Shown in pieces: positions 4,503-64,000 of a DNA stretch of 64,000 nucleotides. Position 1 is the stretch's first letter; every line of letters starts with the position of its first letter. The DNA is taken from the IMG/VR virus record IMGVR_UViG_3300048929_000691. The stretch is one strand, 5' to 3'. Source of the DNA: a virus. Made by a program: the position numbers and the translations under genes. The notes below the pieces were generated by a model. That model was not told where the DNA came from. It saw only the letters and a program-made list of their open reading frames with translations, and searched no databases.

Positions 4503-4865
4503 ATGGTTAAATATCAAGTTCAATTTAAGCCAATAAATACAGCTAATAATACTCCAATTACTAATACAAGTGCTTGGTCAGGAGTTGGATCAAGTACAGC
4601 TGCGGGAGATTATGATTGTGCCTTATATTATACAAGGACAAGCTGGCCAACAGACAGTGACTCCATATGGAGATATAATGGATGGGTTCAAGCAGCAAAT
4701 TTTAGAAAGATACCACATTCTGTTTGGGCAGTATTTTCAGTGGCGGATACAATTAAACAAGCTATGAAGATAGCAAAACCTTTAATGCAACAATATGGTG
4801 TTGATAATGTACAAATAGTTCAAGTAGTTCCAGCTTCTACTGAAATTGTATTTGAGGAACAATAA
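4503..4865 (+). CDS. Hypothetical 120-aa virion protein
   Basis: Good RBS (GAGGTGA) and tight packing; no recognisable motif. Confidence 0.6.
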   Translation: MVKYQVQFKPINTANNTPITNTSAWSGVGSSTAAGDYDCALYYTRTSWPTDSDSIWRYNGWVQAANFRKIPHSVWAVFSVADTIKQAMKIAKPLMQQYGVDNVQIVQVVPASTEIVFEEQ

Positions 4866-4870
4866 CAGAG

Positions 4871-5938: not shown

Positions 5939-5948
5939 GGTGATTTAA

Positions 5949-7256: not shown

Positions 7257-7259
7257 AGA

Positions 7260-10058: not shown

Positions 10059-10121
10059 AACATATTAAAGAAATCTTAACAGTATTATTGTTGAATAATC
10101 AATGGAAGGGGGGAAGTATTT

Positions 10122-20362: not shown

Positions 20363-20768
20363 AGATGCTCAAAATATTAAAAAACTGCTAAAGAAAAATC
20401 AAATAAATGAGTCAATAATTCCTATAGAAAATATAGCTAAGTATTATAGAGATGATAAGCAAAGTCAGGCCATGAAGGTTAAATTAATACCAGCTCAAGA
20501 GACTATATCACAAAATTATTCCATTAAAAGTACAAATAAAGTTCAAAATAAAATTAATAATAATGAACTTATAAGTGTTTCTAATCAAATAAAAGGACTT
20601 CAAGAGGCTAAATATAGGCTGGAAAAAACATTAAGTGAAGCAGGATTTACAGATATAAATATAAATTTTAAATATGGCTCTACATCACCTGCAATAAATT
20701 TAAATGCTTATGAAAGCAATAAAGATAAATTTCAAAATAAAATAAAAGAAAGGCTGGGTACCTTATGA
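20325..20768 (+). CDS. Hypothetical 147-aa protein
   Basis: RBS GAGGAG upstream; ATGA overlap with the next gene. Confidence 0.5.
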   Translation: MLEDKYLKSTQIKDAQNIKKLLKKNQINESIIPIENIAKYYRDDKQSQAMKVKLIPAQETISQNYSIKSTNKVQNKINNNELISVSNQIKGLQEAKYRLEKTLSEAGFTDININFKYGSTSPAINLNAYESNKDKFQNKIKERLGTL

Positions 20769-26350: not shown

Positions 26351-26360
26351 GAGGTATAAA

Positions 26361-34703: not shown

Positions 34704-35843
34704 ATGTCAGATTTTAAGTTCGCCAAATATACTGAAAAAATAAGATCCATGTTACCATTTTGGTTTCAAATGAGAAAGCAACCCGCAGAGTCTATCGGGT
34801 TGCAATTTTTAAATTTTTTTGGAATTCAGCTAGATGATATAGAATATATTTTAAATTATGCATATAAGCAAACAAGAATAGAAGATGCAGATACTAAGTT
34901 TGTTGACATTGTATATAAGGCAATACTGCCTTCTTATTATAATATGAGTAGTATCAATATTATTTCTACTAAGCATGAGCTATTGAGTAAAGCTGATAAA
35001 TTATATGATTTTTTTGGCCTCGGATATAATTATGGAATAATAGATAATAATATTATGCAGCCAGATTATTATTTTTTGGACATTGAAAATAAAATTATTT
35101 ATGTAAGGGAAGCTTATGATATTGATGATACCTATGAAAGTGGCCAGATAACTGTAGAATTAAAAGATGGAACCATTAATACTTTTTCATTATCTATTCA
35201 TCAAATTTGGAATTACTTTGATGAATTTGGAGCTTTACTTTCATGTCCAAGATTATATGGAGAAAAAAATGAAGAATATAAAAATAGAATATTAGATGTC
35301 TTTAAAAATCCTGCAAATTCAAGTAAAAATGGGCTAGCTAATGCTATATCAAGGGAACTTGGTATGAGAAAGCATAAGGTATGGAAAGATACAAATGAAG
35401 ATTTTGTAATTAAAGATTCTATGGTTATAGCCAACTTAATTAAAGTGAAAAATGAAATTGTTAAGGAAGAAGACATACTTTATACTCCAGAAGGATATTT
35501 AGTGATTAAAGCTCTTGGAACCAATGAAAGATATGTTGAGGTCAGTTATATTAGTGGACTTGAAATAAAAGCATTAATAGATCATAGTAATAATAAATTT
35601 AGCAATGAGACCTATAATGCTAATGGAATACCCAAGGATTTAATGCTAAAGTATGTAAAAAATATTAAGAATAACTGCAGCATTATGTGGGATGACTTTA
35701 TGTATAATGAAGCATGCTGGATACAAAATAGTGATGAATATACGGTAGATACCTTTGGGTTTATTCCAGCTACATATGATTCTAATATCAAAGGGTTCGG
35801 TGATTATGGATATTTTGATAAGGGGGGATATAAAAGATGGTAA
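34704..35843 (+). CDS. Probable baseplate wedge protein
   Basis: NYFDEFGALLSCPRLYGEKNEEYKNRILDVFKNPANSSKNGL.NAISRELG echoes the J/I-type R...E.D..YR.RI motif. Confidence 0.55.
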   Translation: MSDFKFAKYTEKIRSMLPFWFQMRKQPAESIGLQFLNFFGIQLDDIEYILNYAYKQTRIEDADTKFVDIVYKAILPSYYNMSSINIISTKHELLSKADKLYDFFGLGYNYGIIDNNIMQPDYYFLDIENKIIYVREAYDIDDTYESGQITVELKDGTINTFSLSIHQIWNYFDEFGALLSCPRLYGEKNEEYKNRILDVFKNPANSSKNGLANAISRELGMRKHKVWKDTNEDFVIKDSMVIANLIKVKNEIVKEEDILYTPEGYLVIKALGTNERYVEVSYISGLEIKALIDHSNNKFSNETYNANGIPKDLMLKYVKNIKNNCSIMWDDFMYNEACWIQNSDEYTVDTFGFIPATYDSNIKGFGDYGYFDKGGYKRW

Positions 35844-38800
35844 TTGAAAAATTTCAATATAAAATAACCATTACAATAGAGAATTTGGTTATGAATTCTC
35901 TAGTTGACTTATCAAAGACGATTACCAAACAAAATATTGATTTATCAAGCACAGAACCAGTACAGCTTGAGAAACATAATTTAATAGATTATTTTTCAAG
36001 GGAAATAGGGAGATTTTGTGCGCGAAATAGCATAAGTCAAAAGGATTTAGCACTATATGGTTATGAAATTACATCTAATACTAATGGAATAGAGGTTTAT
36101 TTTAATACTGATGATACAAATGTATTTAGTCCTGAACCTGCTATAATGGCAAAATTAAGTGCTACAAAGGTGCAGCCAGTATTAAAGTGCGTTCAGCTAT
36201 ACAATAATGTAGTTAAGTGGTACTGGGAAGCCAGCGAAGAAATAAAATATCTTAAAGATGAACATGATAAAATAATTTATCAGGTACCAAGTGGAATTGG
36301 ATATTATATTGAAGGTGATTTAAAGACAGGGGCAACCTATACTAGATATCTTAGTGCTATAAATTCAGCTTTAGAAGAATTACAATCACTGCCTTGTTCC
36401 ATAACATTATTGGAGCAAACAGAAGAAAGCACTTATCCTGTTTTTGAAGTTGAAGATAGAGATGAGACCCTTTGCGAAATAAACAAAGATTATCCAAGTA
36501 AGTTAAAAGCTTTTGCTTCAGGAGTTGGAGATGATAATGACTGTTTGTTATGCAAAGCAAGTGATTTAAGCTTAAATCATAAGTTTAAACTATACAATAA
36601 GATTTATGGTATAAGAGCAAGCAATGATATAAAACATCATGCTATAAAATTTAAATACAGATTTAAATTAGTAGGGGAAGTTCCATATTTGGGATATAGA
36701 GCAGCCTTTACAGTAAGAGTTACAGCACAAGAGTGTAATAATCTCTTAGCTGATTCAAAAGGTGAAGTGCTTTATGGACAGCCTATGGTTAGTGAAAAGA
36801 ACTTATCTTACACTTTAGACGATAATGTTCAAGTTGCAGAAATATATTTATATCAATTTTTTCCTAATCTTTTAGTAGAAAATTATAAAAAAAGATATAA
36901 ATTTACAATAGAAATTTTTAATACCTCTGGTGAGGCTGTGGTTTATAGTCCTGCATATGGTGGAAGAGCTATAAAAAATAATAATTCCTTTTCTTGGAGT
37001 GAACATGGTTACTTTGACCATATGTTTACAGTTGGAGCAAAGGCTACTAGACTTACTAAAGAATATGTTGAATGGTATCCAACAAAGGATTATGATCCAC
37101 TTACTGGAGTGATTAATGGAGATTTTGAAAGTAGCAAGGATGGCTTAAAGGATCTTCATGTTAATATGAATACCTTTGATACGTCAAAATCAGTAATAAA
37201 TAAAAAATATTATTGTGTATTTGAAACTATTTCACCAGATAGCGGTTATGTACAATTTAAATGGGACAATCCGGTTAAAGATTGTGACTATTCGCAAGTA
37301 GATGGAGATGGCATTACCTTTTATTCAAATTCAATTTTTGCAGATGATAGTGAGCACAGTGAATTTATAACTCAAACAGAAGTAGGACCATATGTTATAG
37401 AGGATAATAGAGATCATAAATATACTTATACTATATCAGGAATCTCTGTTGATTTAGCGGCATATAAAAGATTTGAGCTAAGAATAGTACCAAGTATTAA
37501 TGATATTTTAATTATAAGTAACATTCCAGATTTAATTATAAAGGAAGATGGAAGCATAGATACTACAGTTACCGTAACCTGTAGAAACTTGCAAAGTGCA
37601 ACTGCAAAATGGAGTCCAAGTATTCATAATGGATATTACTATTATAATCAAAATGAATATTTTTTATATTCCAAATGTGTACCAGATGATCAAAACCTTA
37701 TCGAAGAGGATCTTTACTTAACTAAAGATGTTCAAGTAAAGTTAGAAATAGGAGTACAAGGAGAAAAGAAGGAAAATAAAAAATATACTTATCATTTATT
37801 TACGAAAGAAGATCTCCTTCTCGATAGTTATCACTATGAATGGGCTGATGACATGGTATGGCCTAAAGCAATTGAATCGTATAATGATTATTATAGTGAA
37901 TATGCACCATACTATGAATATTATACAAAGCCATTTGTCTTTAATGATAAGGTAACTCATTATTCCAAAATCACATGGGATGAGGCTGGAACACCAAATA
38001 GTACAATAGAAGTTTATGCCTATGCTTATGATGAAATAAATGGAGTTTATAATTCTCCAGTAAGAATATATAGGGATAAGGAAATTCCAAAAGAATTGCA
38101 GTTATCTAGAACTTTAATATTAAAATTTGTGTTGAAGCCATCAAGAAAACCTAAGCTTAGGAAAAGGACTCTTCTTTATGACTGCGAAGCTGATTGGCGA
38201 AATCATATGAATTTTTATTTATCGTATAATGTATCCTATAATGAGGAAATTCTTATGCCAATGTCTTATTCTGTAGATGGCGCATATGTGGGAACTTTTA
38301 TGGATTTAGGAGATACTGCAGAAGAAATAAAAGAAAGAAGTATAGAGTTTAATCCTGTTTACCAAGGGGAAATAGAAATTTATATGGTACAGGCTGATCA
38401 TAAAAATGATATTCAAGGTAACGTAAAGTATTTTGATTGGCAGAAGGTTGATATAAATACAGTAAAAACTGATTTAAAAAGATTCATAAGGTATATGATA
38501 ATATTAAAACCAAATTCAAAAATATTTTATATGGAAATGAAAGTCCAAAGATATGAATATACTGATGAAGAAAGAAAAGATTATCTGCCAGGCTTTGGGA
38601 ATATATATGTTGAAGCTCTTAGTTATTATGATTATTATTTATTTCACCATAATAATACATCTATTTATCCAGGAGAGACACATATATCAGAAACCTCACC
38701 AACTTGCTCTGTATGTGGCCTTGATGCTTCCACTTGTACTTTAGTTGAGCATATTGTAACTACAGATGAAGCAAAATATGAGTATGTATTTACTCATTCT

Positions 38801-39856
38801 TTAAAATATGATACTAAAGATGAGTTATTAATTGGTGATTTAAATGGAGAATTAACTAATTTAGCAACTGCACTAGGATTTAATGCGGGGAATGTAGTTA
38901 ATACTAATTTTTATCCATATGGAGATATTTCAGATTTTTCAATATCTAAGGTAGGAAATGAAGTTCATATTAAAAGTGATGATATATTATATGATGAACA
39001 GCTCATAGAAAATAATCAAGCTGGAGCTAAGTATGCAATCACTGATAATACCATTACTTTATCGCCAATTCCTCAACAGTATGCACCAATAATTATTTAC
39101 TGTGACGAACGTGATGAAGCATATACACAGGTATTCTTTACAGATGAAAATTATAATTATGTTTTAACGAATACAGAAGAGTTTGAGTCCTTAGGCTTTA
39201 AGACTTTATATTTGAAATATTTAAACATAGATATCAAGAGTTTAAAAGTCGAAATAGACTATAAAGAATATTTGCAGTATACTATAAAGGACAATGTAAT
39301 AATTTTTAATGAAAAAATTAAAAAGGGAGCTAATATTAAAGTTACTTACAAGTTATTGAATTCTTTTGCTGTCAATTATGATTACTCAAAAGATACTTTT
39401 AAGATAGATTTTAATAAAGAAACTGGAGAAAATGTTCAAAATATAAAAATATTTTATGAGACAAATAAAATTTCTTCATGTAGGGAATTAAGTGATATAA
39501 GCTTTAATCCTATATATAGTGCAAGATATAATGGGTATGTTTTTATATGTGATTACGTAGATGAACCAAGAAGTGTAACAATATATCCATCAAGTGATTA
39601 TATATATGCTAATGGACTTGATACAATGAATACGCTAGTTCAGGTATTAGATAAAAATAGTAATCCAATAGAAAATGTTAAGGTTAATATAGTAGCAGCT
39701 AAAGGCAGCATTAACATAAGAAATGAAAAGACAGATTCTAATGGAATCATATATTGCAGATATACAGCTTCACTAGAAAATTGTATTGATACTATTAAAG
39801 CAACTGTATCAACGGATGTAAAAGATGAAGTTAAAATATATAATAGAAAGTTGTGA
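35837..39856 (+). CDS. Large baseplate/structural protein with C-terminal invasin/intimin-type Ig (Big_1-like) domain
   Basis: 1339-aa ORF; C-terminal [30 protein letters not shown]...TDSNGI...YTAS. Confidence 0.6.
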
Positions 39857-42800
39857 TTTGTTTGGCAGAAGATTATAAGGAAATTCGAGATACAATTAAA
39901 TACACAATAAAAGAAAATTCAATTCTTCATGGGATAATTCCAATAGGCAGAATAGGAGTTACAGGTATTGAACTTTCAAATGCATATAAAAGAGATACGT
40001 ATAAAACTACTAAAGAAAATCCTTATGGTACTATTGCATTTGCAGATATAAAAGTTCAAGGGGATAGAATAAAGTTCACTTATACTTGTATGACAGGTTT
40101 TCATGGAGATGACTCTTTTGAATTCTTAATAACTTATTCTGATGGAACAAAGCAGCTTAGAGTAATTGAAATGGATGTTATTAAAAGCTTTTCCAATGAA
40201 AGTGTTACTAATCAATATTATGAATATTATTTAGATCCAGAATATAACTTGGTAGAAAATAATGGAATTAGAAGTATTGAAGTTAACTACAGTACTCAAT
40301 ATAAAGTCTCAGGTAAGGACCTACATCCAACTAAAGTTTCCTTAGCAGTTTCTGATGATAGTTTAAGTATAGAATCAAATTTACAAATAATGAATCATAT
40401 TAATACTGCAAGTAACTTCACATGTTCAGCAAGTACTCAAACTGTAGTTAATGCAAAAGTCATACGAGATGACAGCAGCGATAATATAGAATCAGCAAAG
40501 GGAAATAAAATATATGCAGTTCCAAAAGTAGATATTACACTAGCTTCAAAACTTCCCTTCAATGGAACAGAGTATTTAATATTAACCTTTAAAGACTTTG
40601 AAGATAAGAACGATGGAGAATGGTCTTATGGAGAAGAAGTAATAAATATAATCTTTAATGCACGAAAAATAGATGAAACAGCAACTACCTATGTTATAGG
40701 ACAGAATACTTGGACTTGGGATGATAAGCCTAAGTTTGAAGATACCAATGTCGATTTTCCAAAAGTTCCTTCTAATAGCTTTGAAAAATATGAAAGTGAT
40801 TTTCAAGATGGAAATCTTCTTAGGAATACTGATGCCCATTTTGAATTTAACAAATACAATAACAGAACCATAAGAGTAGGAAAGAATGTACCAGATTGTG
40901 CTGTAAATTTAGGCTTTTACTATAATACTGTTGCAAGTTTTAATGATACAATTTCAATTCAGGAAACAGACACAAATTCAGTTGGGGTGAAAAATGTTGT
41001 GAAGTGGATTAGTAAGAGAAATTTACCTGAAAAGAATGATGACTTTTTTCCAACAAATCTTGAATTTAATGGTGAAGATAATACAGAGTATCATGGATAT
41101 TCAGGAACGTTATATAGGCAGTATGTGGACTGGGATGAAAGTCTAGAAATAGATCAAAATCCTGAATATATTGAAGTTTACGAACAGTTTAGAGGAACAC
41201 AAAACGTAAGGATACCAAGAATAAAGAAGTATGATAATGGGAAAAAATTTGGTACCTTGAAATATATAAACTCTGCCAATGAACCTTATGATTTCTTCAA
41301 GGATAGTTATAATATTTTTACTATTAAAGGAGAAGGATTCGTTCCACGTTACTGGCTTATAAGTGCAAGATATGGAGGGATAATAAGTGATAAGATTCCT
41401 CTTTATAATGGTACTGCTAAATATTTAGGATATGTAACAAAAAAAGATGGCCTTAGCAATATTGATCCAGAAGCTGAGAGAGAATTTATAATGTATGCTG
41501 ATGAAAGTGGAATCCTTCATGATATAGAGGGAAATGATTTAATAGATGATGATTTATTTTATATCACAGATAAGTTTAAGGATGAAACCCCTCTTTACTA
41601 TAAATATAAGCTTAAATATAGAGTTTATAACAATCTTGGAAGAGATGAATATGGAAATTACAAGGCAGATAATATTAAATTGGTTAATGAAAATAATATG
41701 CCACTGCTTGATACTTATAAATATAAGGTCTTTTTAGAACCTACTAAATATGCTGATATTTTTGATGCTTATATATATACTAGCTTTGTGCCATTAGCTG
41801 CAAACCCTGTATATGCAATGTATGATGGTATAGCTCAGGAGGCTTATACCTTAAAAGATGAAATATCACCTCTTGATGTTAAAGTTGGAATCCTTGAAAA
41901 GATAAGTGTGATACAAGCAATGGATAATCATGTTGAGTATGAGGTAAAAGAAGCCCAAGGAATCACTCTTCAAACTAAAGTTAAAATGAAAGATTTTAAT
42001 GTTATATACGATGAAAGACGTAAAATAAGGATTCAATATGTAATATCAGCAGGAAGCATTAAGACTCCTCCAATAGAAGCAGAGGTACTAAATAAAAAGT
42101 ATGCTTTATATTCAGAGAAAGATTTATTTAAGAATGACAATATGATTGTATCTCCAAAGGCTGTAACAGGATATTTAACAGCAAAAAGTATATTGCTTAA
42201 GTATGCAGGAGAAGATCATCGTGAAGAAATCGAAAATGCTGAAGTAGTTAAAGTAGGAGTTGACATTGATGATTTCAATAGCTTTTTAGTAAGAGATAAA
42301 GTTATTTTATATACAGATCCAGATGGTTCTGGACTAATATATGCAAGAACCTATGAAGATACAGGTATTAAAAACACAGAAGATGGTGTTACAAGATATA
42401 ATAAATCCATGGATCCAGATAGTATTTATCAAGTAGTTAATGGAAAAATATTTAAAGGATATTCTGTTTTATGCAGAAACATAAATAAAATAAGGTTATG
42501 TGGCCCAGATGAAACAAATCCATTAAAAGAATGGTATCCAAAATTTAAATACAGCTACTTTAAAAAAGTATATGAAAATGATGATACCCAGTTAATATAT
42601 TCTATACCTGAGTTTCATTCGCAGGTTTGGGGAGTTTATGGCAGCCCATATAAAGATGTTAAAGATGAAATACCTCAATATGTTGGGAATAATACAGTAA
42701 AAACTGTCCACTATCCTTTATATGTGAAAGTAAATGCTTTAGGTAATCCTGTAAACATAGAAGCTTATAAAGTCCTTCATGATGGTTCCTTAAAACAACT

Positions 42801-43617
42801 TACTGTAGAAAGCTTTAATTTTAAATATGGATATATAGAATTTAAAAATGTTATTTCAGAAAATGATAATATACTTATAAATTATTCTTATGAAGAGCTA
42901 TTTTTTCACTATAAAGGCTATTATCCTTTAACAGATGGTAAAGCTGATAAGAATAAAAAGATGATTGATGTAAATATTAATCCAAGTAAATATTGTACTT
43001 ATACAGATACTAGTAATGAGATTCAGGAAGAAAAACAGGTTTATAATTTATTTAATAAAACTATTTATTTCTTCTTAAGACCAATGAGGCAAATTGAAGT
43101 AAAGACTAATAAAGTCAAAGAAGATAAAGATCAAGAATTTACAATATATCATAGATTTGATACTCAGGAAGCAGAAGGTAGCTTTGACTTGCTTATAGGA
43201 AGACTTTTTGTAAGACATCATGCATCTCAGAAATCAACAGTATTAATTGACACAAGGCAAAGAGGCGGCGGAATAATTGAAGCAATGTCTGATAAATTAA
43301 GGCAGGAGCTTGAGCCGGAAAGTGATTATTATTTAGATATAGGAACTTTAGATGGTAAGCCTTATCATGAAAATTCAGTTATAGTTATAAGACTTGATAA
43401 GAGGATGCTAAAAATAAATGGAGGAATATATTCTAGGGATGATATTGAAAATGCCGTTAATAGATGGTGTGCATATGGAATGTACCCAATTATAGAATAT
43501 GTCGATGTTGTAGATGATGAATTAATGCCTCAAAATACAATGAAGGTAAACAGAAAGGTAGTAAATGCACTTAATTTCAATCCATATATAACAGTTAAAG
43601 TTATTGATGAAAATTAA
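39853..43617 (+). CDS. Large 1254-aa baseplate/structural protein, N-terminal Ig/cadherin-like segment
   Basis: GTG start overlapping the previous stop; [24 protein letters not shown] resembles tandem Ig/cadherin-like repeats. Confidence 0.55.
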
Positions 43618-48907: not shown

Positions 48908-48925
48908 ACGAAAGTGGTGCTTAAA

Positions 48926-49570
48926 ATGAATTGCCTTATATATTCAGGAAATAAATACTTTGGTATTGAAAATAATGAATTAACTGAAACTACATTAAAT
49001 ATTGAAAATGCTTTTGACTCATCCCTTTTAGATTCTTTAAGGGATGAGTTAAAAGCATATGCACCTTTTAAAATTGTATTATTTAATGCTAATAAGAATA
49101 AGAGCATGGTCTATAAAATAAATAGTTCCAATGCTTTTATTCTTATAAATTTAACTAATATAAAGCATGAGAACATTCAATTTGAAAACAAGCATAAGAT
49201 GCTCGTATCAAATGATTTAAAAAATTGGGATAACTACTATGATTCTAATAATTGTGACTCTAGATATTTTGAGAACTATTCTGATAGATACATCAAAGAT
49301 TATGTAAATAGTAAATGCAAATATATTAACTATATTAGCAAAAATTATAACTATATTTTATTAAAATTGAATGATGGAGAATTGCTAAATAAATTATTTG
49401 AAAATATATTAGGAGAATATAAGAGGATTGATTATGATACAAATTTTAATACAGGAGCAATAAATCAAGTGACTGTAACTTTTCCAGAAAAATATAGTCA
49501 AGTATTAATCAAAAAAACAAAATCTGTGGAAAGCAAGATAGTTATTAAGGATAGTATAGCTGGTTTTTAG
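48926..49570 (+). CDS. Stand-alone homologue of the C-terminal domain of the glycine-rich proteins
   Basis: ATG 48926 preferred (RBS GAAAGTGGTG). Ends VTFPEKYSQVLIKKTK, compare FEKEYSEILINRLTK in 49581; starts LIYSGNKYFGI, compare LLQKDNKLYIP. Confidence 0.5.
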   Translation: MNCLIYSGNKYFGIENNELTETTLNIENAFDSSLLDSLRDELKAYAPFKIVLFNANKNKSMVYKINSSNAFILINLTNIKHENIQFENKHKMLVSNDLKNWDNYYDSNNCDSRYFENYSDRYIKDYVNSKCKYINYISKNYNYILLKLNDGELLNKLFENILGEYKRIDYDTNFNTGAINQVTVTFPEKYSQVLIKKTKSVESKIVIKDSIAGF

Positions 49571-49580
49571 GAGGTGGATT

Positions 49581-51017
49581 ATGCTTAAAGAATTTACTTT
49601 TAATTATACTGGAAAGGTACAAACTTTGATTGTACCTGCTACAGGTAACTATAAACTTGAATGTTTTGGTGCCTCAGGTGGTATAGGTTATGGGAATGCA
49701 AATCCTTTTGGATTAGGTGGATATGCCTGTGGCGAAATTAAATTAAATAAAGGTGATATTCTATATGTTTATGTTGGTGAAGATGGAGTTAACACTATAA
49801 CAACACCTTCATTTGGTGGAGGTGGTGCAGCTTTTTCAACTTCAGGCCATAATGGAGGCAGAGGTGGTGGAGCTTCTGATATAAGGCTTGGTTCAGATGA
49901 TTTAAAATGTAGAATAATTGTAGCAGGAGGAGGCGGCGGAGCTCAACCAAGTTGTGGAGGCAACCACACTACCGCAGGACATGGAGGGGGATTAATTGGT
50001 GCACAAAGTTATAATCAAGCTGGTGGATATGCAGGATCGTATGCAAATGGAGGAACTCAAACCGCTGGAGGAACTTCTGGAAATGTAAGTGGACAATGGC
50101 ATGCTAATGGAAGTTTTGGATATGGTGCTAATTCACAAACCTGTGGTGCTGGTGGTGGTGGAGGCTGGTATGGAGGAGGCTCTACCTATACTGCTGGAGG
50201 AGGTGGAGGGTCGTCTTACTTAGGAACTCTTAAAAATTCTTCTACATCCTCTGGTATTAACAAAGGAAATGGGAAAGTAGTTATATCCTTAATTTACGAT
50301 GAAGTTGCTTTCTTTTTTGTGAAAGGTGAAGAATATTATTTGCCAATAGCAAAATATTTTGATATTGGTACAAAAATGTTTAAAGCTGTTAGTTTAAATG
50401 ACTTAAGGTCTGAAATTAATAATAGCAACTATGGAAATGTAAGTTTATATAATATAAATGCACCATTTGTAATAGATTCAATTTCATATAATCCACTTGA
50501 TTATCTAGATATATCTAAATGTAAAATATGTGTTATACCTAATGGGTCTAGGGCTAATGACCATGTGAAAGAACTAGATATTAATTATGTTCCTACCTCT
50601 AAAGCTTTATCTAAAACTAACATTAAAATTAAAGATATGTACACTCCTTATAAAGATAACATTCAAAATCCATTTTTGAATATAGAAGCAGCAAATAAAG
50701 CTAATATTAGCTTTCTCATAAATTATGAAAATTTATATGATATCGTAAATGACGATTGCAGTTTAATAGATAAAAAATTAATAAAAGATAATTTCTGCCT
50801 AAGCTTTAAATTAAATGATGTAGTGAGTTTGTTAAAATCAGTATCGTTATGCAGCAGAGATATTAATTATTTTAAAATAAGAGATGATGATTTAAATGTA
50901 AGCAATGATTATATAAATACTCAAATTGCTTTTGAGAAAGAATACTCAGAGATATTAATAAATAGGTTGACTAAACAATATTTTAAGTATTTAGACGATA
51001 ATTTGGACACATTCTAA
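49581..51017 (+). CDS. Glycine-rich (ALK/LTK-like polyglycine-II) domain protein, subtype A1; candidate receptor-binding protein
   Basis: FNYTGKVQT...YKLECFGASGG...GGGASDIR...RIIVAGGGGG...GGGGGWYGGG...GGGGSSY...GNGKVVI plus ~235-aa C-terminal domain. Confidence 0.75.
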   Translation: MLKEFTFNYTGKVQTLIVPATGNYKLECFGASGGIGYGNANPFGLGGYACGEIKLNKGDILYVYVGEDGVNTITTPSFGGGGAAFSTSGHNGGRGGGASDIRLGSDDLKCRIIVAGGGGGAQPSCGGNHTTAGHGGGLIGAQSYNQAGGYAGSYANGGTQTAGGTSGNVSGQWHANGSFGYGANSQTCGAGGGGGWYGGGSTYTAGGGGGSSYLGTLKNSSTSSGINKGNGKVVISLIYDEVAFFFVKGEEYYLPIAKYFDIGTKMFKAVSLNDLRSEINNSNYGNVSLYNINAPFVIDSISYNPLDYLDISKCKICVIPNGSRANDHVKELDINYVPTSKALSKTNIKIKDMYTPYKDNIQNPFLNIEAANKANISFLINYENLYDIVNDDCSLIDKKLIKDNFCLSFKLNDVVSLLKSVSLCSRDINYFKIRDDDLNVSNDYINTQIAFEKEYSEILINRLTKQYFKYLDDNLDTF

Positions 51018-51029
51018 CGAGGTGGTTTT

Positions 51030-52495
51030 ATGGCATTAAAAACAATTACATTTAATTACACTGGAATAATGCAAACTTGGATTCCACCAGAGGGTGTATA
51101 TAGGATAAAAATAGAGTGTTATGGTGCCAAGGGTGGAGGTTCCATGATGAATGGAAGTGTAAATAGTAATGGTGCTAAGGGCGGATACTGTTGTGGTGAA
51201 TATACGTTTGAACGTAATACTCAAAGGCAATTATATATATATATGCTGGTGGTGCTGGAATTGATGGTAGATTTTCTAATACTCCTGGTGGGTGGAACGG
51301 TGGAGGAATAGGAACATACGATGGAAGAGATGATGAAGGTGGTGGCAGCGGAGGTGGTGCTTCAGATGTTAGATTGGTTGCTGCATCTTCAGGTTCATGG
51401 TATGACACTTCGCATACATCATGGGATACTGACAAGTCTTTATTGTCAAGGATTATAGTAGCTGGCGGTGGTGGTGGTCTTTCTTGGAATTTTACGGCTG
51501 GTGAAGGTGGAGGATTAACTGGGGGAATGGGTGCTAATAATACAAGCACCTCAGCAACTCAAACTAGTGGATATGCATTTGGAAGAGGTCAAGATGTATG
51601 GAGTGTTGTATGGGACGGAAATGGCGGGAATATTGGACAAGGTGGAGGTGGCGGCGGCTGGTACGGTGGATATACTTCTGCTGTATATCCAAATGTTTCA
51701 GGCTGTGGTGGCTCATCATACTATGGAAATTTAATTAATGCAAAAACAATTGCTGGACTTAATAACGATAAGGGTAAAGTTACAATAACATATGAAGATG
51801 GATACTTCTTTTTGGAGCATGATGGAAAATATTATATAACAACAGAAAAATATTTTGATACGACATCAAATTCCTTCATTCCAGTAAGTATATCTGATAT
51901 TTATAGCAACATAGTTAATAGTGGTGCTGTGTATCCATTAATCAATTTATATAAGCCGTTTATGATAGATGGAGTTTATTATTATCCCAATGATATGTTT
52001 GATTATGCTAATTCTAAAATATGTATTATTGATATTAATAAAGATTATAAATTAGATATGAATTATATCCCATCAAACATAGCATTATCTAAAACAAATA
52101 TAAAAGTAAAAAATAAATATACCCCAGTACATGATGAATTTGAGCTTACATTTTTAGATATAAATTCAAATAATAAAGCAAAAATATATTATTTTTTAGA
52201 TTTTGGTAAAAATGAAGCATATAAAAATTGAAGTGTATTAGATGATGATATTATAATTAATGATTTTTACTTAAACCTTAAATTTAATTCATATGATGGA
52301 ATATTTGATTCTATAACATTATATGTGAAGAATAATGATAAATATACTAAACTTAAAAGCACTAATATTAATGTATATGACAATTTTAATTTTGAAATGC
52401 TCATATGCTTCAAAGATAATTATGAAGAAGTACTGGTTAATAAGATTGCAAAACAATCAATGGATTATACAATTGATACTTTAGATAAATTTTAG
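51030..52495 (+). pseudogene. Glycine-rich domain protein subtype B1, disrupted by +2 frameshift in a (TA)6 tract and an in-frame TGA
   Basis: Removing one AT from 51232-51244 restores LYIYAGGAG...GGGASDVR continuity into the 51374 frame. TGA at 52229-52231 is followed in frame by the normal C-terminus ending YTIDTLDKF* at 52495. Confidence 0.85.
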
Positions 52496-54262: not shown

Positions 54263-55660
54263 ATGCTTAAAATAGTTGCTTTTAATTATACAGGTAATGT
54301 ACAAAATTTTGCAATTCCAAATCATGTAACACAATTTTATATAAAATGCTATGGAGCTCAAGGATATACTTTTAACATGTATGGATTATATAATTCTGGT
54401 GGTAAGGGCGGATTAGCATATGGAAAATATATATTAAAACCTGATGATAATAGAACGCTTAATATTTATGTTGGTGGGACAAATGGATATAATGGAGGGG
54501 GTATTGGAGGAAATGGTAATACAGGAGGTGGAGCTTCTGATATTAGAGTAAATGGTACTACTTTAACTAACCGTATAATAGTTGGCGGTGGTGGTGGTGG
54601 TGCAAGTGGATATCGTCCAGGTGGAGATGGTGGTGGTCTTATAGGCGGAAGCGGTGAAGCTTCAGGGGGGACTCAAACATCAGGTGGATATAGTGTAGAT
54701 TATAATGGTGCTATTGTAGGTAGAGGAACTTTGGGGCAAGGAGGAGTTGCTTGGTATAATTATATTTATGCTGGTCCAGGTGGTGGAGGATACTACGGTG
54801 GTGGTGGCGGATCAAACCACTATGGAACCAATAATGATAATTCTGGAGGGGGAGGCTCATCCTATATAGCATTACTTGATCCGATAGATGCATCAACTAC
54901 TTCTGGGGTAAGGACAGGAAATGGATTGGTTGAAATAACATATGAAGAAGATCCAAATGCTTATTTCTTAGAAAAAGATGATAAATATTATGTTATAGAT
55001 AAAAAATATTTTGATAATATAAATAAAATATTTTTACCAGTTGAACTGGAGGATATATATAATGACTCAGTTGACACAGCTATTACTCCAAGAGCCGATA
55101 TGAGTATAACATCAATGTCAAAGCCATTTGTGCTAGACAATCAAACCTATGATCCCATTAAATTAATAGATTTTAAAGAATATAAACTTTGTACTTTATC
55201 TAAAGATAATTTATATAAAATAACAATGTATTATACAGCATCAAATAAAGCTTTATCTGCGACAAATATAAAAATAAAGGAAAAATATATTTTAGATAAT
55301 TATAGGACAAATGCAAATGATTCAATATTCTTTTTAGATATAAAAGCTACTGATAAAACAAAAATAGATTATTTTTTTGATTATGGGGAAACCAAATCAT
55401 ATAATAATTGCAGTATATTAAATACAGACAAAATAAGTAATGATTTTTATTTTGATTTTAAATTAAATTTGGCAGATAGTTTATTACAGTCAATAACTTT
55501 ATATGGTAAGAATAATGATAAATATGTAAAGCTTAAAGAGCCTAATATAAATATATATGATAAATTCATAAAATTTAATGAAAGCTACAATGAAGTTATA
55601 ATTAATAAATTATGCAAGCAAAGTGTTGAATATACAATTAATACCTTGGATAGATTTTAA
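54263..55660 (+). CDS. Glycine-rich domain protein, subtype B2
   Basis: FNYTGNVQ...GGGASDIR...RIIVGGGGGG...VEITYE; ends YTINTLDRF. Confidence 0.75.
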   Translation: MLKIVAFNYTGNVQNFAIPNHVTQFYIKCYGAQGYTFNMYGLYNSGGKGGLAYGKYILKPDDNRTLNIYVGGTNGYNGGGIGGNGNTGGGASDIRVNGTTLTNRIIVGGGGGGASGYRPGGDGGGLIGGSGEASGGTQTSGGYSVDYNGAIVGRGTLGQGGVAWYNYIYAGPGGGGYYGGGGGSNHYGTNNDNSGGGGSSYIALLDPIDASTTSGVRTGNGLVEITYEEDPNAYFLEKDDKYYVIDKKYFDNINKIFLPVELEDIYNDSVDTAITPRADMSITSMSKPFVLDNQTYDPIKLIDFKEYKLCTLSKDNLYKITMYYTASNKALSATNIKIKEKYILDNYRTNANDSIFFLDIKATDKTKIDYFFDYGETKSYNNCSILNTDKISNDFYFDFKLNLADSLLQSITLYGKNNDKYVKLKEPNINIYDKFIKFNESYNEVIINKLCKQSVEYTINTLDRF

Positions 55661-55672
55661 GGACATGAAGAA

Positions 55673-55720
55673 ATGCAAAATAAATATATAATTTTGAAAA
55701 GTAAAGGAGTGGTTAGTTAA
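55673..55720 (+). other. Chimeric duplication junction (mini-ORF MQNKYIILKSKGVVS)
   Basis: The first 30 nt are identical to the start of the 59315 gene; the last part is identical to the end of the 46434 gene; the join is at a shared TTTGAAAAGT. Confidence 0.9.
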
Positions 55721-59314: not shown

Positions 59315-61153
59315 ATGCAAAATAAATATATAATTTTGAAAAGTCCTGTTAAGATTGGCGATTATGAAAGAGTGGCAAGCTATTCGGAAGGTCTTACTAA
59401 AGGTGAAGAGCAGCTTTTAGTCACAAGAGATTTAAAGTTTTTTTTAACCGATGGTAAAGGTGGATATTTAGAATTTAAATCAATAAATTCAGGTATAACT
59501 CTTGATGAAGTAAATCAAAAATTAAAGGATTTAGATAATAAGATATCTGATGAAATAAGAGATTTAGATGACAAAAGTTCTAAGGATATTAAAACCCTTA
59601 AAGATGCAGTTGATGCATTGTCTCTTAAATTTTCAGGCTATGTGACAACAGAGGATTTTGAGGATTTAAAAACCAAAGTAGAGTCGAATACGACTTTGGC
59701 CACTCATGATAATCGAGAGGTACTTGATAAATTTAGTGTTGATAAAGATGATAATCCTTTATTTAATGGGAAAAAGATTGTAGCAGATTTTGATACTTCT
59801 GGTATAGAAGCTGAAATTGCCAATTTGAATGCTAGAAGTATAATAGGAAGTAATTTAGATTATGGGTTATTTGGAATTTCTAAAGCAACAAGTATCGGTG
59901 CTGGTGACATAGTTCCATTTAATACAACATATATGAACAACGGATTAACAGTTTCAAATGGTGTTGTAAAGCTAAAAAAAGGAAGAAAATATGAAGTAAA
60001 AGCACAATCAGCTACAAATGTTTCTAATAATAATGTTTGGTTTTTTATACAAGCTAATTCTGTTAAAGTTGGGAAATCTGGTTGGTGTGGAAATGTTAAT
60101 CAAATAAGTATACCAGCAGTAGCAATAATAGACTGTAGTGTAGATACAAGTCTTATAATAACAACTTCAAATGAATATAACATAGATGATTCATGTGCTC
60201 TTTTGACATATTTAGAAATAGTAGAAATAGGAAGAATAACTGTGATAGATCCTTGCGAAGATGGTAAAAATATAAATTTTGAATATGGTTATTTTAAAGC
60301 AAACCAATCAGCAAATTTAGCACCTGGCAATCATTTAGAACTAGATATGATAAAAGGGAACATTACTATTTCCACTGGTTCAAATCAGGAAAAAGGATTA
60401 ATAACATTACATGCCAATAAAAAATATAAGCTTGATTTTTCTTATTCTAATGCTGGAAATTCTACTAATGGTATTATAGATTTTAATGTATGTGATTCTA
60501 ATGGAAATATATTAGAAGATTTACCATATGCGTATCCTACAACTTATACTGGTGATTCACAAGCTTCACCTGTCTCAACATTTATTTTAGAACCTACAAT
60601 TGATACTGTAATAAATTTTAAAATAGCTGCAAACGCCTCACATTGGGTAGGTGCTTACCTTGTTATAGAAGAGATCGCACAACCTTATTACTTTAATTAT
60701 TACAAAGATAGTCTACAAACAACTACTTTATTCAATGGAGCTGCTGACACTAAATCAATAGATTATACTTTAAGCGATAGTATACAGAATTATGAAAAAA
60801 TAATAGTATATGCAGCATGTAATATTAATGGAGTCATTAGAGAAAAAACTACTAACATAATTAATGTTTCTGAAATAGAAAATAATAATAAGTATGAATT
60901 TATAGTTGGATTTTCAATTAATGCTTCTTACTATTATTTCATTGAATTTGCATTTCCAAGCGATAGAACCTTTAATATAGCTAATAATGGATTTGTTGGA
61001 TGGCCTAATCCTATAATATACAAAATAGAAGGGATTGGCTATACTTATGAAAATCCGTACCAAGATGTTATTACAACGATCGATGAATTTACAGTTGCAG
61101 ATTCTACCATAGACTCAGACATAAATTCAGTATGGAATGAGGTGGGAATCTAA
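59315..61153 (+). CDS. Modular fibre/receptor-binding protein 1 (coiled-coil N-terminus, two C1q/BclA-C-like domains, C-terminal beta-domain)
   Basis: GDIVPFNT...NGLTVSNGVVKLKKGRKYEV resembles C1q/TNF-like jelly rolls; LFNG...YTLSDSIQNYEKI is a fibre-tip motif. Confidence 0.6.
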   Translation: MQNKYIILKSPVKIGDYERVASYSEGLTKGEEQLLVTRDLKFFLTDGKGGYLEFKSINSGITLDEVNQKLKDLDNKISDEIRDLDDKSSKDIKTLKDAVDALSLKFSGYVTTEDFEDLKTKVESNTTLATHDNREVLDKFSVDKDDNPLFNGKKIVADFDTSGIEAEIANLNARSIIGSNLDYGLFGISKATSIGAGDIVPFNTTYMNNGLTVSNGVVKLKKGRKYEVKAQSATNVSNNNVWFFIQANSVKVGKSGWCGNVNQISIPAVAIIDCSVDTSLIITTSNEYNIDDSCALLTYLEIVEIGRITVIDPCEDGKNINFEYGYFKANQSANLAPGNHLELDMIKGNITISTGSNQEKGLITLHANKKYKLDFSYSNAGNSTNGIIDFNVCDSNGNILEDLPYAYPTTYTGDSQASPVSTFILEPTIDTVINFKIAANASHWVGAYLVIEEIAQPYYFNYYKDSLQTTTLFNGAADTKSIDYTLSDSIQNYEKIIVYAACNINGVIREKTTNIINVSEIENNNKYEFIVGFSINASYYYFIEFAFPSDRTFNIANNGFVGWPNPIIYKIEGIGYTYENPYQDVITTIDEFTVADSTIDSDINSVWNEVGI

Positions 61154-62858
61154 TGGCAAAAATTAATTTTGAAGATGCTGTTATTAAAATAATAAAAAGA
61201 TATTTAGTTAGTTTTGGTAAATCCTTAGCTTCTAAATTTTACACAAAAAAGCAAGTAGATACCATGATATTACCTATTCCAGCAATTCAAACAGATATAG
61301 CTAGTTTGAAGACAAGAAGTGTTTTAGGAAGTAAATTGAAGACAGGATTATATAAACCGGCAACAAAAATCACTGGCGGTGTTACTACAGGTATAGTAAA
61401 AATGGGTACAAAAATATCTGGTGATTTTACACTTAATGCAGATGGAACAATAACTCTTCCGAAAGGTTCTTATTATAAAGTAAGAGGGGCTTTAAGATTT
61501 GCAACAAATACAACTTCAGGTTTTGCTTCCTATATGATAAGAAACTTCACAGATTCAGTGAATGCTGGAGTAGCAGCAACTATAAATAGTTATTCATATT
61601 GGGAAGGACAACAAGAAGCTATTGCATATATAGATACAACACAAAAAGATATAAACGTAGGCATATATATTACTGGCGTAAATAATGCAACAGGTGCTGA
61701 AATAACTGACGGATTTACTTTTCTTGATATACAAGAAGTCAATAGGACAACCATTATAGACCCTTGCGAAGATGGTAAGAATATAAATTTTGAATATGGT
61801 ATGTTTAAGTTATCAACAAGTCCAACAACTATGGCAGTTGGAGATTTCATTAAATTTAATACTATGCCATATGGTAATATGTCAATAAATCCAGCAACAT
61901 ACCAAGTACCTTTAAAAGCTAATAAAAAATATAGAATTAGTATAGATATTAGTGGTGTATTTCATAACACAGTTTTTGCTTTGTATAATATAACAACTGG
62001 GACTGTAATTCAGATATTATATGGAGCTGTAAATGATATTGACTATAATTATTTATCGACAGCAGAGTTTATATACGAGCCTACAGCTGAGTGTAATGTT
62101 GGTGTAAAATGCTATGCTATTTATGGTTCATTTTCTTCAATAGTTAATACAAATACACAAATGGTTATTCAAGAAATTGCACAACCATACTACTTTAATT
62201 ATTACAAGGATAGTATAGCTTCAAATGTATTGTTTAGTGGAAATGCTGCAAGTGTCGGAGATTATACTTTGAGCGATGATATAACTAAGTATAAATATCT
62301 ATTAATATCATGGCAAACAGGCAATAGTGCATCTGGAACTACAGCCATAACTCAAACTAAAACAGACATGATTCCTGTTGATACAATAGCAATAGGGGAC
62401 ACTAATAATAAAAGATTATGGTTTGATATGCTTAATGATACAACATTAAAATCAGTTTTGTTATTGTTCTTTAAAAGTTCAAAAACAATGACATATGGTT
62501 TTGGGACAGCATCAAGTCCTTGGACAAATCCTGTTGTAACTAGAATAGAAGGTATAGGCTATAGTTATGAAAATCCTTATCAAGATGTTATTACAACGGT
62601 TGACGAATTTGTACTTTCAGATTCAGCTGTAGACACAGACATAAATTCATTATGGAGTGAGGTGGGGATTTAATGGCGAAAATTAATTTTGAAGATGCTG
62701 TTATTAAAATAGTAAAAAAATATTTGGTTAGTTTTGGTAAATCATTAGCTACTAAATTTTATACAAAAAAGCAAGTGGATACTATGATAGTACCCATCCC
62801 AGCAATTCAAACAGATATAGATAATTTAAAGGTAAGAAGTGTGATTGGATCAAAATTA
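61024..62858 (+). repeat. ~315-nt direct repeats spanning gene junctions (61024-61338 and 62544-62858), period 1520 nt
   Basis: EGIGY.YENPYQDVITT.DEF...DINS.W.EVGI*MAKINFEDAVIKI...IPAIQTDI conserved at DNA level. Confidence 0.85.
61153..62673 (+). CDS. Modular fibre/receptor-binding protein 2
   Basis: Same three-domain layout and linkers as 59315; TAATG stop-start overlap. Confidence 0.65.
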   Translation: MAKINFEDAVIKIIKRYLVSFGKSLASKFYTKKQVDTMILPIPAIQTDIASLKTRSVLGSKLKTGLYKPATKITGGVTTGIVKMGTKISGDFTLNADGTITLPKGSYYKVRGALRFATNTTSGFASYMIRNFTDSVNAGVAATINSYSYWEGQQEAIAYIDTTQKDINVGIYITGVNNATGAEITDGFTFLDIQEVNRTTIIDPCEDGKNINFEYGMFKLSTSPTTMAVGDFIKFNTMPYGNMSINPATYQVPLKANKKYRISIDISGVFHNTVFALYNITTGTVIQILYGAVNDIDYNYLSTAEFIYEPTAECNVGVKCYAIYGSFSSIVNTNTQMVIQEIAQPYYFNYYKDSIASNVLFSGNAASVGDYTLSDDITKYKYLLISWQTGNSASGTTAITQTKTDMIPVDTIAIGDTNNKRLWFDMLNDTTLKSVLLLFFKSSKTMTYGFGTASSPWTNPVVTRIEGIGYSYENPYQDVITTVDEFVLSDSAVDTDINSLWSEVGI

Positions 62859-64000
62859 AGTTTTGGGTCTTTTGATATAGACACATCAAAAACAGGAGTT
62901 AATCCCACGCTAGCTGCTAATTATAAAATACCCTTTAAAATTAAAAGTGGTAATCTTATAGTGGATTCAAATGGTTATATCAAATTGGAAAAAGGAAAAA
63001 GTTATAACCTTAATTTTTTTGCAACAAGCAATGCACGATTTGACTTTCAATTTTTTAACGTTACAGATTCAGTTAGTGTTGGAAAAACAATAATAAGTGG
63101 TTCAACTATAAGTGGAAGTGGTTCTTATTCAATTGAAGTTACCAAAGATATCTATATTACAGTTATGGTAAGTTATAGGGAAGGAACTATGTTATTTACA
63201 GATTATTGTGAACTTACAATACAAGAGATTGGAAGAAATACAATAATAGATCCTTGTGAAGATGGTAAGAATATAAAATTTGAACATGGATTATTCATAA
63301 ATGTTAATGACCAATCTATAGTTCAAAATACTGTGTTAAAATTAACAAATCAATTAAGTGGAAATATGAGTTTATCAGCAAATGGGTATGTTAATCTAAA
63401 AGCTGGTAAATCTTATAAGCTAAAGGCATCAGCTGGTGATGATAAAACGTATATTGATTATATGATTTATGATGTTACAAATAAAAAGACCATAGGGGTT
63501 TGTGCTTCAAATGCAGCAACAATAGTATCTCAACCAATAGCCATAGCCGAATATATTCCACCAACAGATTGTGAGATAAGTGTAATAATAAGATACCTTG
63601 ATTCCACAGGAACAGGTAAAATTAGTGCATGGAGATCATATTTGGAGATTGAAGAAATAGCACAACCTTATTACTTTAATTACTTTAAAGATAGTATCAA
63701 ATCAACTACATTATTTGACGGATCTGCTCCATCAGTAGGAAGTTATACATTACTAGATGATATAACAAAATATGAATATTTGAAGATATGGTCTTGTAGA
63801 GTAGAAGGAACAGTAAAAAGAGATAAAAGCAGTATTGAAGTAAAAGTATCAGACATAACAGGTGCTACATGTGAATTTATAATAAGTTCATATGCTCTTG
63901 CTAATGTTTTTGACAGTATGGAATTTAGTTTTGCTAGTAATAAATTAAGGATAGACGCAATGTATAATGGAGGTTGGCCTTCTTTTATTATATATAAAAT
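62673..64000 (+). CDS. Modular fibre/receptor-binding protein 3, 3' truncated by window edge
   Basis: Not in the ORF track (no stop in window). ATG 62673 gives MAKINFEDAVIKIVKKYLVSFGK..., with linkers IIDPCEDGKNIKFEHG and EEIAQPYYFNYFKDS; frame appears open to 64000. Confidence 0.7.
   Translation, partial: MAKINFEDAVIKIVKKYLVSFGKSLATKFYTKKQVDTMIVPIPAIQTDIDNLKVRSVIGSKLSFGSFDIDTSKTGVNPTLAANYKIPFKIKSGNLIVDSNGYIKLEKGKSYNLNFFATSNARFDFQFFNVTDSVSVGKTIISGSTISGSGSYSIEVTKDIYITVMVSYREGTMLFTDYCELTIQEIGRNTIIDPCEDGKNIKFEHGLFINVNDQSIVQNTVLKLTNQLSGNMSLSANGYVNLKAGKSYKLKASAGDDKTYIDYMIYDVTNKKTIGVCASNAATIVSQPIAIAEYIPPTDCEISVIIRYLDSTGTGKISAWRSYLEIEEIAQPYYFNYFKDSIKSTTLFDGSAPSVGSYTLLDDITKYEYLKIWSCRVEGTVKRDKSSIEVKVSDITGATCEFIISSYALANVFDSMEFSFASNKLRIDAMYNGGWPSFIIYK

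Follow-up and report, generated by a model that had tools for sequence, protein, structure and literature searches.

The final 4.7 kb of a 64,000-nucleotide viral stretch, IMG/VR record IMGVR_UViG_3300048929_000691 (hereinafter the window, meaning this whole stretch), are occupied by three co-oriented genes on the plus strand, which we term g1, g2 and g3. They form a tandem tail-fibre array in which whole domains have most likely been exchanged as cassettes at short conserved linker boxes, by general recombination acting at the level of a population of elements and without a dedicated enzyme. Judging from sequence and gene neighborhood, g1-g3 constitute the putative distal receptor-binding (tail-fibre) module of a phage-plasmid that resembles a myovirus, measures about 125-136 kb and comes from a soil Clostridium of the saccharoperbutylacetonicum group, and their products would accordingly function as adhesins.

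Each gene follows a common plan: an N-terminal anchor (N-anchor), box0, a first variable domain (D1), box1, a second variable domain (D2), box2, a third variable domain (D3) and a conserved C-terminal tail (C-tail). The copies recur with a period of about 1.5 kb, with successive copies of box1 being 1511 and 1490 nucleotides (nt) apart and those of box2 1502 and 1481 nt apart. An earlier, sequence-only reading of the window had described at least three consecutive genes of one plan with variable domains separated by conserved boxes; our mapping agrees with it, down to the exact starts of box1 at 60245, 61756 and 63246 and of box2 at 60668, 62170 and 63651. The box sequences that it listed hold less strictly: the boxes of g3 differ by one or two residues (NIKFEHG, NYFKDS) and the g2 copy of box2 opens with Q, not E. 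Likewise, its list of conserved boundaries was right for box1, box2 and the junction repeat between genes but lacked a fourth boundary, box0. The features of the array, all on the plus strand, are listed below:

g1, 59315..61153, plus strand: first fibre gene, 612 amino acids (aa); open reading frame (ORF), match to the family phrog_12269 over residues 110-612, alignment
g2, 61153..62673, plus strand: second fibre gene, 506 aa, whose start overlaps the g1 stop (TAATG); ORF, full-length phrog_12269 match, AlphaFold2 model
g3, 62673..64000, plus strand: third fibre gene, 442 aa of about 484-487, with the 3' end open at the window end
box0 of g1 (AEIANLNARSIIGSNL), 59808..59856, plus strand: boundary of N-anchor and D1; direct-repeat family, breakpoints of a hidden Markov model (HMM), metagenome contig joint at 59818
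box0 copies, g2 61289-61337 and g3 62809-62857, plus strand: direct-repeat family D8
D1 cassette of g1 (allele D1.d), 59858..60241, plus strand: allele clustering
D1 of g2 (D1.b), 61339-61752, and of g3 (D1.a), 62859-63242, plus strand: allele clustering
box1 of g1 (IDPCEDGKNINFEYG), 60245..60289, plus strand: repeat finding, codon alignment, pattern search
box1 of g2, 61756..61800, plus strand: repeat finding, pattern search
box1 of g3 (IDPCEDGKNIKFEHG), 63246..63290, plus strand: repeat finding, pattern search; the 97% homology to array L014 (see below) stops at 63289
D2 cassette of g1 (allele D2.a), 60290..60670, plus strand: allele clustering, block match to g1 of genome G001 (see below)
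D2 of g2 (D2.b), 61801-62172, and of g3 (D2.d), 63291-63653, plus strand: allele clustering
box2 of g1 (EEIAQPYYFNYYKDS), 60668..60712, plus strand: repeat finding, codon alignment, pattern search
box2 of g2, 62170..62214, and of g3, 63651..63695, plus strand: repeat finding, pattern search
D3 cassette of g1 (allele D3.b), 60713..61024, plus strand: allele clustering; beta-sandwich in the AlphaFold2 model
D3 of g2 (D3.a), 62215-62544, and of g3 (D3.d), 63696 to the window end, truncated, plus strand
Junction repeat 1, 61001..61300, plus strand: g1 C-tail, TAATG overlap and g2 N-anchor; 300 nt, 86% identical to 62521-62820
Junction repeat 2, 62521..62820, plus strand: g2 C-tail, TAATG overlap and g3 N-anchor

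The three proteins are 34-37% identical to one another overall and belong to phrog_12269, a phage protein family without an assigned function (E 3e-146 for g1, covering profile positions 1-495 of 495; 3e-179 for g2, full length; 2e-132 for g3). The g1 protein has an additional ~110 aa at its N-terminus ahead of the segment from box0 to the C-tail, while the full-length orthologues of the truncated g3 have 484 aa (array L017) and 487 aa (L014). In codon-aligned comparisons of g1-g3, DNA identity is 86% in box1 and 81% in box2, falling to 36-50% over most of the domains, in line with the strong divergence noticed in the sequence-only reading. By BLASTP, the D1 cassettes are distantly homologous to the D2 cassettes (up to 34% identity, E 2e-17), with D3 being separate. 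Degenerate patterns of box1 and box2, with up to three mismatches allowed, occur at just three sites each in the 64 kb, all on the plus strand, where none is expected (100 shuffles). The core of box2, P-Y-Y-F-N-Y-x-K-D-S, is invariant in 25 family members, down to relatives that are only 27-30% identical overall. Each junction repeat combines the C-terminal ~42 codons of the upstream gene with the N-terminal ~62 codons of the next, confirming the long repeat reported earlier. Here the last sense codons of g1 and g2, encoding EVGI (GAG GTG GGA/GGG ATC/ATT), also form the Shine-Dalgarno sequence for the gene that follows (61138-61155, GAGGTGGGAATC; 62658-62675, GAGGTGGGGATT), just ahead of the stop/start overlap; hence, nucleotide conservation at the junction arises in part because these codons also serve as a ribosome-binding site.

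We recovered no significant Pfam match in g1-g3, and neither the C1q (PF00386) nor the TNF (PF00229) profile matched them at E up to 0.1. Therefore, their likeness to these domains, set out below, is one of fold only. An AlphaFold2 model of g2, built from a 25-sequence alignment, predicts N-terminal helices (residues 6-53), three beta-sandwich domains (64-196, 215-341 and 355-470) and a C-terminal helix (490-505), with the boxes forming linkers of low predicted local distance difference test score (pLDDT) at residues 200-210 and 345-354. Structural alignment with VIA-align places the g2 D1 (model 3-143) in the C1q/TNF fold (Z 14.7, root-mean-square deviation (rmsd) 2.3 A over 124 aa) and the g2 D2 (model 153-289) in the C1q/BclA fold (Z 15.0). 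Both predicted domains superpose over their whole length on the C1q/TNF jelly-roll, as seen in C1QL3, EDA, the BclA C-terminal domain and the C1q head (Z 14-15, rmsd 2.3-2.5 A, 124-135 aligned residues). Thus, the C1q-like fold proposed from the sequence is borne out by the models for D1 and D2. For the smaller beta domain D3, a beta-sandwich in the AlphaFold2 model, the only lead is a family profile that weakly resembles the receptor-binding domain at the C-terminus of phage K gp144 (5m9f, E 0.018). These models offer a first structural and functional reading, as candidate C1q/TNF-like binding modules, of a PHROG family of unassigned function.

The fibre proteins may be trimeric. The top Foldseek matches are engineered single-chain trimers of C1q, adiponectin and BAFF, which head the list because the three domains align in series. 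Modeled alone, D1-D3 yields good domains without a defined mutual arrangement (pLDDT 82, predicted template modeling score (pTM) 0.40), and the packing between domains is likewise undefined in the monomer models at large (pTM 0.36-0.40). It is conceivable that one chain might arrange its three tandem TNF-like domains as a single-chain pseudo-trimeric head with independently swappable faces, a compact arrangement for which the pTM of 0.40 is neither support nor contrary evidence.

Evidence for exchange comes from a comparison of eight arrays: the window; L014, a 125-kb contig 97% identical to the window; L012, from Clostridium sp. YIM B02555; L010, on the 136-kb contig of the genome G001; L016, L017 and L020, from metagenomes, the latter two from the same sample (JGI metagenome 3300042922); and L011, from G305. 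The single-copy distant relatives L013, L015, L018 and L019 were also collected. A collection of phages gave no DNA or protein match, which is uninformative, and locus searches of genome contigs and viral contigs confirmed none. In blastn comparisons of the window with three relatives, homology comes in blocks bounded by the conserved segments. For instance, the block at 60245-60711, from box1 to box2 of g1, is 93% identical to the G001 g1 while both its flanks are unrelated; further blocks run from the junction to box1 of g2 (61015-61799) and from box2 of g2 to box1 of g3 (62167-63289), and the 97% identity to L014 ends at 63289, inside the latter box. Against closely related elements, with flanks 93-99% alike, single cassettes drop with sharp edges to 40-50% nucleotide identity. 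Pairwise identities of the cassettes are bimodal (at least 90% or under 50%); for D1, 28 pairs lie at 90-100% and 139 below 50%, with just 4 between. Clustered at 80% identity, the cassettes fall into discrete alleles, whose combinations, written D1-D2-D3, are the following:

g1, d-a-b: window, L014, L020
g1, c-f-b: L012, L017
g1, c-a-f: G001
g1, c-e-a: L016
g2, b-b-a: window, L014, L017, L020
g2, b-e-a: G001
Last copy, a-d-d: window, L017
Last copy, a-c-c: L014, L020, G001
Last copy, a-i-h: L012
Last copy, a-d-k: L016

All 4 of the 4 possible combinations of the g1 D1 allele (d or c) with the g3 D2-D3 pair (cc or dd) are present. A two-state HMM run on each informative pair of genes placed every switch between high and low identity either in one of the boxes (box0, box1 or box2) or in the opening codons of the C-tail, with the breakpoints at box0 recorded as Nt[94/107]. 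Per-domain phylogenies are incongruent: in approximately unbiased (AU) tests, with groups named after the allele map was known and p-values that are accordingly descriptive, D2 rejects the clades D1.3 (p 2e-43), D3.2 (6e-9) and D1.2 (0.005), and D3 rejects the clades D1.3 (2e-18) and D2.2 (0.004). Hence, the two expectations raised from the window alone, namely reassortment of domains with breakpoints in the boxes and conflicting domain trees, are both realized among the relatives. As in other mosaic adhesins, conserved motifs (boxes 81-95% identical in nucleotides) alternate with hypervariable units (cassettes 36-50%), and the natural chimeras are joined within the motifs. We dropped one further count as a test, the concentration of 91% of 569 identity transitions in 14% of the columns, as it is partly circular and conserved islands alone create transitions.

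The comparison also caught chimeras and changes in copy number. L016 has two family genes instead of three (4622-7953) before the gene for a Collar-domain protein (see below). Up to box1 its first gene agrees with the G001 g1 at 333 of 338 informative sites; beyond it, the agreement is with the G001 g2, at 347 of 368. The switch point lies inside the 11-nt TTTGAATATGG of box1. This array is what would be expected if the box1 copies of g1 and g2 had undergone an unequal crossover that deleted one gene length, and it provides one clear case of the exchange between copies that had been proposed. L012 also has two copies (8136-11419), with the g2 type being absent, a loss that would fit the outcome expected of recombination between the junction repeats. 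In the window itself, g3 is of the L014/L020 type through D1 (35:9 informative sites) and of the L017 type from box1 onward (4:185 in D2, 1:153 in D3), such that the array joins g1-g2 of the L020 type to the distal half of a g3 of the L017 type. The 5' half of box1 goes with the D1 allele and its 3' half with the D2 allele. A g1-type gene of G305 carries a D2 allele 80% identical to the g2 allele. Besides passing between elements, alleles have moved between array positions at least once. L013, L018 and L019 have a single g1-type copy, which in L013 is followed by an XkdX-family gene.

These patterns point to the following mechanism. Each protein is built of a helical N-anchor, three autonomous beta-sandwich cassettes and a conserved C-tail joined by invariant linker peptides, and protein-level constraint would hold these linkers constant. 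Because they are constant, the linkers furnish the sole DNA similarity between otherwise unrelated cassettes (45 nt, 81-95% identical, exact runs spanning 11-23 nt). Whole cassettes could then be swapped in frame through ordinary homologous or short-homology recombination at the boxes, among related elements that share a host and, now and then, among paralogues of the same array, while recombination between the 300-nt junction repeats, or between the boxes of neighboring genes, would alter copy number (3 to 2). Rare crossovers at the boxes would yield folded fibres and be retained, and selection on host recognition would maintain many cassette alleles, giving a combinatorial repertoire at the level of the population. 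Two variant arrays co-occur in one sample, L017 (c-f-b, b-b-a, a-d-d) and L020 (d-a-b, b-b-a, a-c-c). The combinatorial adhesin library envisaged in the sequence-only reading thus exists across a population of elements and probably not as switching within one genome.

Several points weigh against this account. The compared elements are few (8 arrays) and related, the AU groups are post hoc as stated above, and the within-gene pairwise allele graphs hold no closed cycle. Intragenic recombination is deduced from the near-random divergence of the replaced cassettes and not from a strict four-gamete test inside one gene. On the protein side, g1-g3 have neither a Pfam match nor a characterized homologue, and the VIA-align match list does not cover D3. 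The profiles of RecT, ERF and RecA match nothing on the 136-kb relative (other recombinase families were not searched), so host functions would have to act in their stead. The most direct objection concerns the boxes themselves. At positions with the same residue, the same-codon fraction is 0.79 in box1 against 0.62 expected from the codon usage of the genes, 0.68 against 0.64 in box2, and 0.55 against 0.53 in the domains; synonymous sites in the boxes are thus near the codon-usage expectation. The longest exact matches are 11-23 nt between paralogue boxes and 33 nt in the junction. With such short exact runs and near-expected synonymous sites, homology-driven crossover would be inefficient, and selection for in-frame, linker-located junctions could contribute much. 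This comes close to conservation at the amino-acid level only, with saturated synonymous sites, the outcome that the sequence-only reading had itself set against its proposal. The boxes are thus micro-homology sites, not strong homology islands, with a DNA homology that is probably for the most part a by-product of protein constraint plus codon bias.

These same observations favor an explanation by selection only, in which the boxes are purely structural linkers, recombination is illegitimate or happens anywhere, and only the chimeras joined in linkers fold and survive. The protein-level invariance of box2 in distant relatives and the wide occurrence of D-type domains without boxes likewise agree with it. 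In contrast, the resolved junctions lie within runs of shared identity (11 nt in L016, about 20 nt in the window g3), the D1 allele is accompanied by the left half of box1 and the D2 allele by its right half, as expected for crossovers inside the box, and no out-of-register or indel-bearing junction is seen among the 8 arrays. Hence, we consider this explanation unlikely, and we infer that sequence homology, beyond selection for folded chimeras, directs the crossovers.

At the other extreme, the boxes might be evolved crossover signals, making the array a self-contained device for evolvability in which paralogues of one element exchange C1q-like cassettes at appreciable frequency through the boxes and junction repeats, without a dedicated enzyme; the pseudo-trimeric head described above might add to this. 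If so, a single lineage would continually regenerate new fibre combinations and copy numbers. We regard this stronger proposal as unlikely.

Tail-fibre genes are classic targets of programmed diversification, and the array superficially resembles an arrangement of an expressed gene plus donors. Both features would fit a diversity-generating retroelement, an invertase shufflon or conversion from silent cassettes operating within one genome. No reverse transcriptase is encoded on the 136-kb relative, and neither is a serine recombinase, as all PF00078 and PF00239 matches of that genome are chromosomal, tyrosine recombinases not having been searched. Pfam scans of the window ORFs, covering most of those of at least 100 aa (with 20765-32000, 35837-43617 and 48914-52231 unscanned), likewise revealed neither a reverse transcriptase nor an invertase, in agreement with the sequence-only reading. 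The G001 genome has no family copies outside the array, there are no extra box copies in the 64 kb, and the only inverted repeats are AT-rich chance ones. Thus, within the scope of these searches, the array has neither the reverse transcriptase and adenine-variant template repeat of a diversity-generating retroelement nor the site-specific recombinase and inverted crossover sites of a shufflon; its copies are all co-oriented, full-length and translationally coupled, and the changes are whole-domain replacements, not adenine-directed substitutions. The lack of a reverse transcriptase or serine recombinase, of extra copies and of inverted repeats, together with the replacement of whole domains, argues that this is not a retroelement, shufflon or silent-cassette system, and we consider any such programmed process very improbable.

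Artefactual mosaics could arise if short reads from co-occurring strains were mis-assembled across the repeated boxes. Several relatives are indeed metagenome or draft contigs, and contigs of mixed-sample assemblies break at boxes and junctions. However, the same combinations recur in independent assemblies (L014 = L020; window g1-g2 = L020), G001 is a finished two-contig genome, the L016 chimera also differs in gene number, and 45-nt boxes less than 95% identical are too short and divergent to mislead 31-127-mer assemblers throughout; hence, it is extremely improbable that the mosaics are artefacts. Two further public metagenomes from different studies yield variants of g1 that carry replacements of 443 nt (D1) and 386 nt (D2), with joints at 59818 (box0), in a box1 copy and at 60669 (box2); this comparison used contigs, and rare chimeras within one culture are outside its reach. 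Tandem duplication followed by rapid domain divergence under diversifying selection, without cassette exchange, would account for three paralogues of one plan at a ~1.5-kb period and for the distant homology of D1 and D2, but it is already contradicted by the sharp-edged cassette drops between elements with near-identical flanks, the bimodal identities, the incongruent domain trees and the chimeras with parent-specific sites, leaving it an equally negligible probability.

The genomic setting is consistent with the proposed role of the array. The window has 30% G+C with all large ORFs on one strand, and it encodes tail sheaths at 10122 and 12436, a Baseplate_J protein at 33165 and giant structural proteins. 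Among named proteins, the closest matches belong to Clostridium saccharoperbutylacetonicum (99%) and Clostridium sp. YIM B02555; in the nearest genome compared, G001, the homologous array lies on the second contig, of 136 kb. Directly upstream of g1 is an array of glycine-rich (ALK_LTK_GRD) proteins. Beyond 64 kb the array was read from close relatives, where it continues with a Collar-domain protein of 504-527 aa, then small genes, then a GH25 endolysin. Thus, it sits between the baseplate genes upstream and, in the relatives, the lysis genes downstream, with a conserved N-anchor and variable distal cassettes, as in a tail module. The Collar protein repeats the plan: N-anchor and box0 are the same and a D1-type domain follows, while box1 (IDPAQQIDK) and box2 (PTYFMNYSPQ) are variants and the D2 slot between them is taken by the Collar domain; D3 and the C-tail complete the protein, with all three slots varying between elements. 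A metagenome contig from the probable source sample suggests that beyond the window g3 is followed by a fourth gene and then by the fifth, MAQINIK gene. The additional members in the relatives are:

Collar-type fourth member, L014:12984-14546: also in L010, L012, L016, L017 and L020
Fifth gene, L014:14548-14922: 124 aa with a Cys-rich acidic tail, sharing just the ~35-aa N-anchor (phrog_37021); likewise in those five arrays

A family profile searched against a representative library of 1.84 billion proteins recovered 1073 proteins at E up to 0.001. Many of these matches cover D1, D2, D2-D3 or D3 alone, and their ends cluster at the box positions. Among 140 representatives not already collected, box1-like motifs are found in 8 and box2-like motifs in 21. 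As D-type domains are frequent without boxes, the boxes belong to this fibre architecture and not to the domain fold. The giant proteins P0043, P0056, P0073 and P0105 (3300-4200 aa) have 4-7 stretches of the D1/D2 type that are C1q-like and without boxes, such that the module is reused in very different architectures.

Other features of the window merit brief mention. The first 30 nt of g1 (59315-59344) recur exactly at 55673-55702, just past the stop of the glycine-rich gene 54263-55660, where they encode a 15-aa relic (MQNKYIILKSKGVVS*) ahead of a 223-aa gene at 55720. This suggests that the segment 55703-59314, comprising the 223-aa gene and two glycine-rich genes, may have been inserted ahead of g1 or have arisen there by duplication. 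An identical alternative continuation is seen in contigs from two runs, with loose ends at 59344. Further upstream, a 1879-aa protein (26361-32000) matches phrog_20474 ("endolysin") over its full length and has a transglycosylase-like stretch at about residues 900-1060, and for the neighboring 1861-aa protein (20765-26350) the match is to a singleton-like PHROG; the two may be giants of the tape-measure-like or tail-lysin kind. The ORF at 1-1683 has four atrophied bacterial Ig (aBig_2) domains, and a 435-aa ORF at 5949-7256 shows a weak match to RHS repeats (E 6e-5).

Taken together, these arrays render cassette exchange in host-recognition proteins visible at base-pair resolution. Each of the 2-4 tandem genes offers three slots, the junctions all fall within 15-residue linkers, and in one case a chimera was caught along with a change in copy number. 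The boxes are also natural "cut here" positions for re-targeting clostridial phage fibres or phage-tail-like particles. We found nothing in the literature on fibres of the phrog_12269 type or on those of the saccharoperbutylacetonicum megaplasmid.

Several known systems bear comparison. TNF-like heads are established in phage receptor-binding proteins, such as those of lactococcal Tuc2009 and 1358 and the central-spike knob of Staphylococcus phage 812 (PMC13433997). Among the phage structures matched by our models are 9eul (Z 14.3) and 9euf_8 (Foldseek E 2e-7), a phage 812 chain. As in those proteins, whose heads are known to be exchanged between phages, a TNF/C1q-like beta-sandwich lies at the host-recognition end of a tail protein; unlike them, with their one head, the g1-g3 proteins carry a pair of C1q-like domains in series and then a further beta domain, with invariant boxes joining them, and no sequence homology is detectable. 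In structure, D2 and D1 are best matched by Bacillus exosporium proteins, namely the BclA C-terminal domain, ExsFA/BxpB and F-BclA (Z 15.0 and 14.6). These are likewise tips of Firmicute surface fibres, but they are single C-terminal heads on collagen-like stalks, non-phage and without cassettes, at 9-15% sequence identity. A large-scale survey has described recent domain mosaicism in otherwise near-identical receptor-binding proteins of related phages (Smug et al., 2023; PMC10684548), without fixed linker boxes as junctions or unequal crossovers within an array, whereas here the junctions are placed at the level of bases.

The closest parallel in mode of action is the distal tail-fibre locus of T-even phages (gp37/gp38), where, as described in PMC3157838, glycine-rich motifs separate hypervariable segments (citing Tetart et al., 1996, 1998) and swapping at the conserved motifs creates new combinations of specificity determinants (Trojet et al., 2011). 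The alternation of conserved motifs and hypervariable segments is common to both. However, the units exchanged are short loops in the T-even phages, whereas here they are whole C1q/TNF-fold domains of ~100-135 aa, disposed in three slots per gene and 2-3 (+1) tandem paralogues, on a plasmid-like element of a Gram-positive anaerobe. As g1-g3 have no Pfam or PDB sequence match to gp37/gp38, the array works alike without being a member of that system. Thus, the fibre family and its architecture are new, while the principle is not, recombination at conserved tail-fibre motifs having been known from T-even gp37/gp38 since the 1990s.

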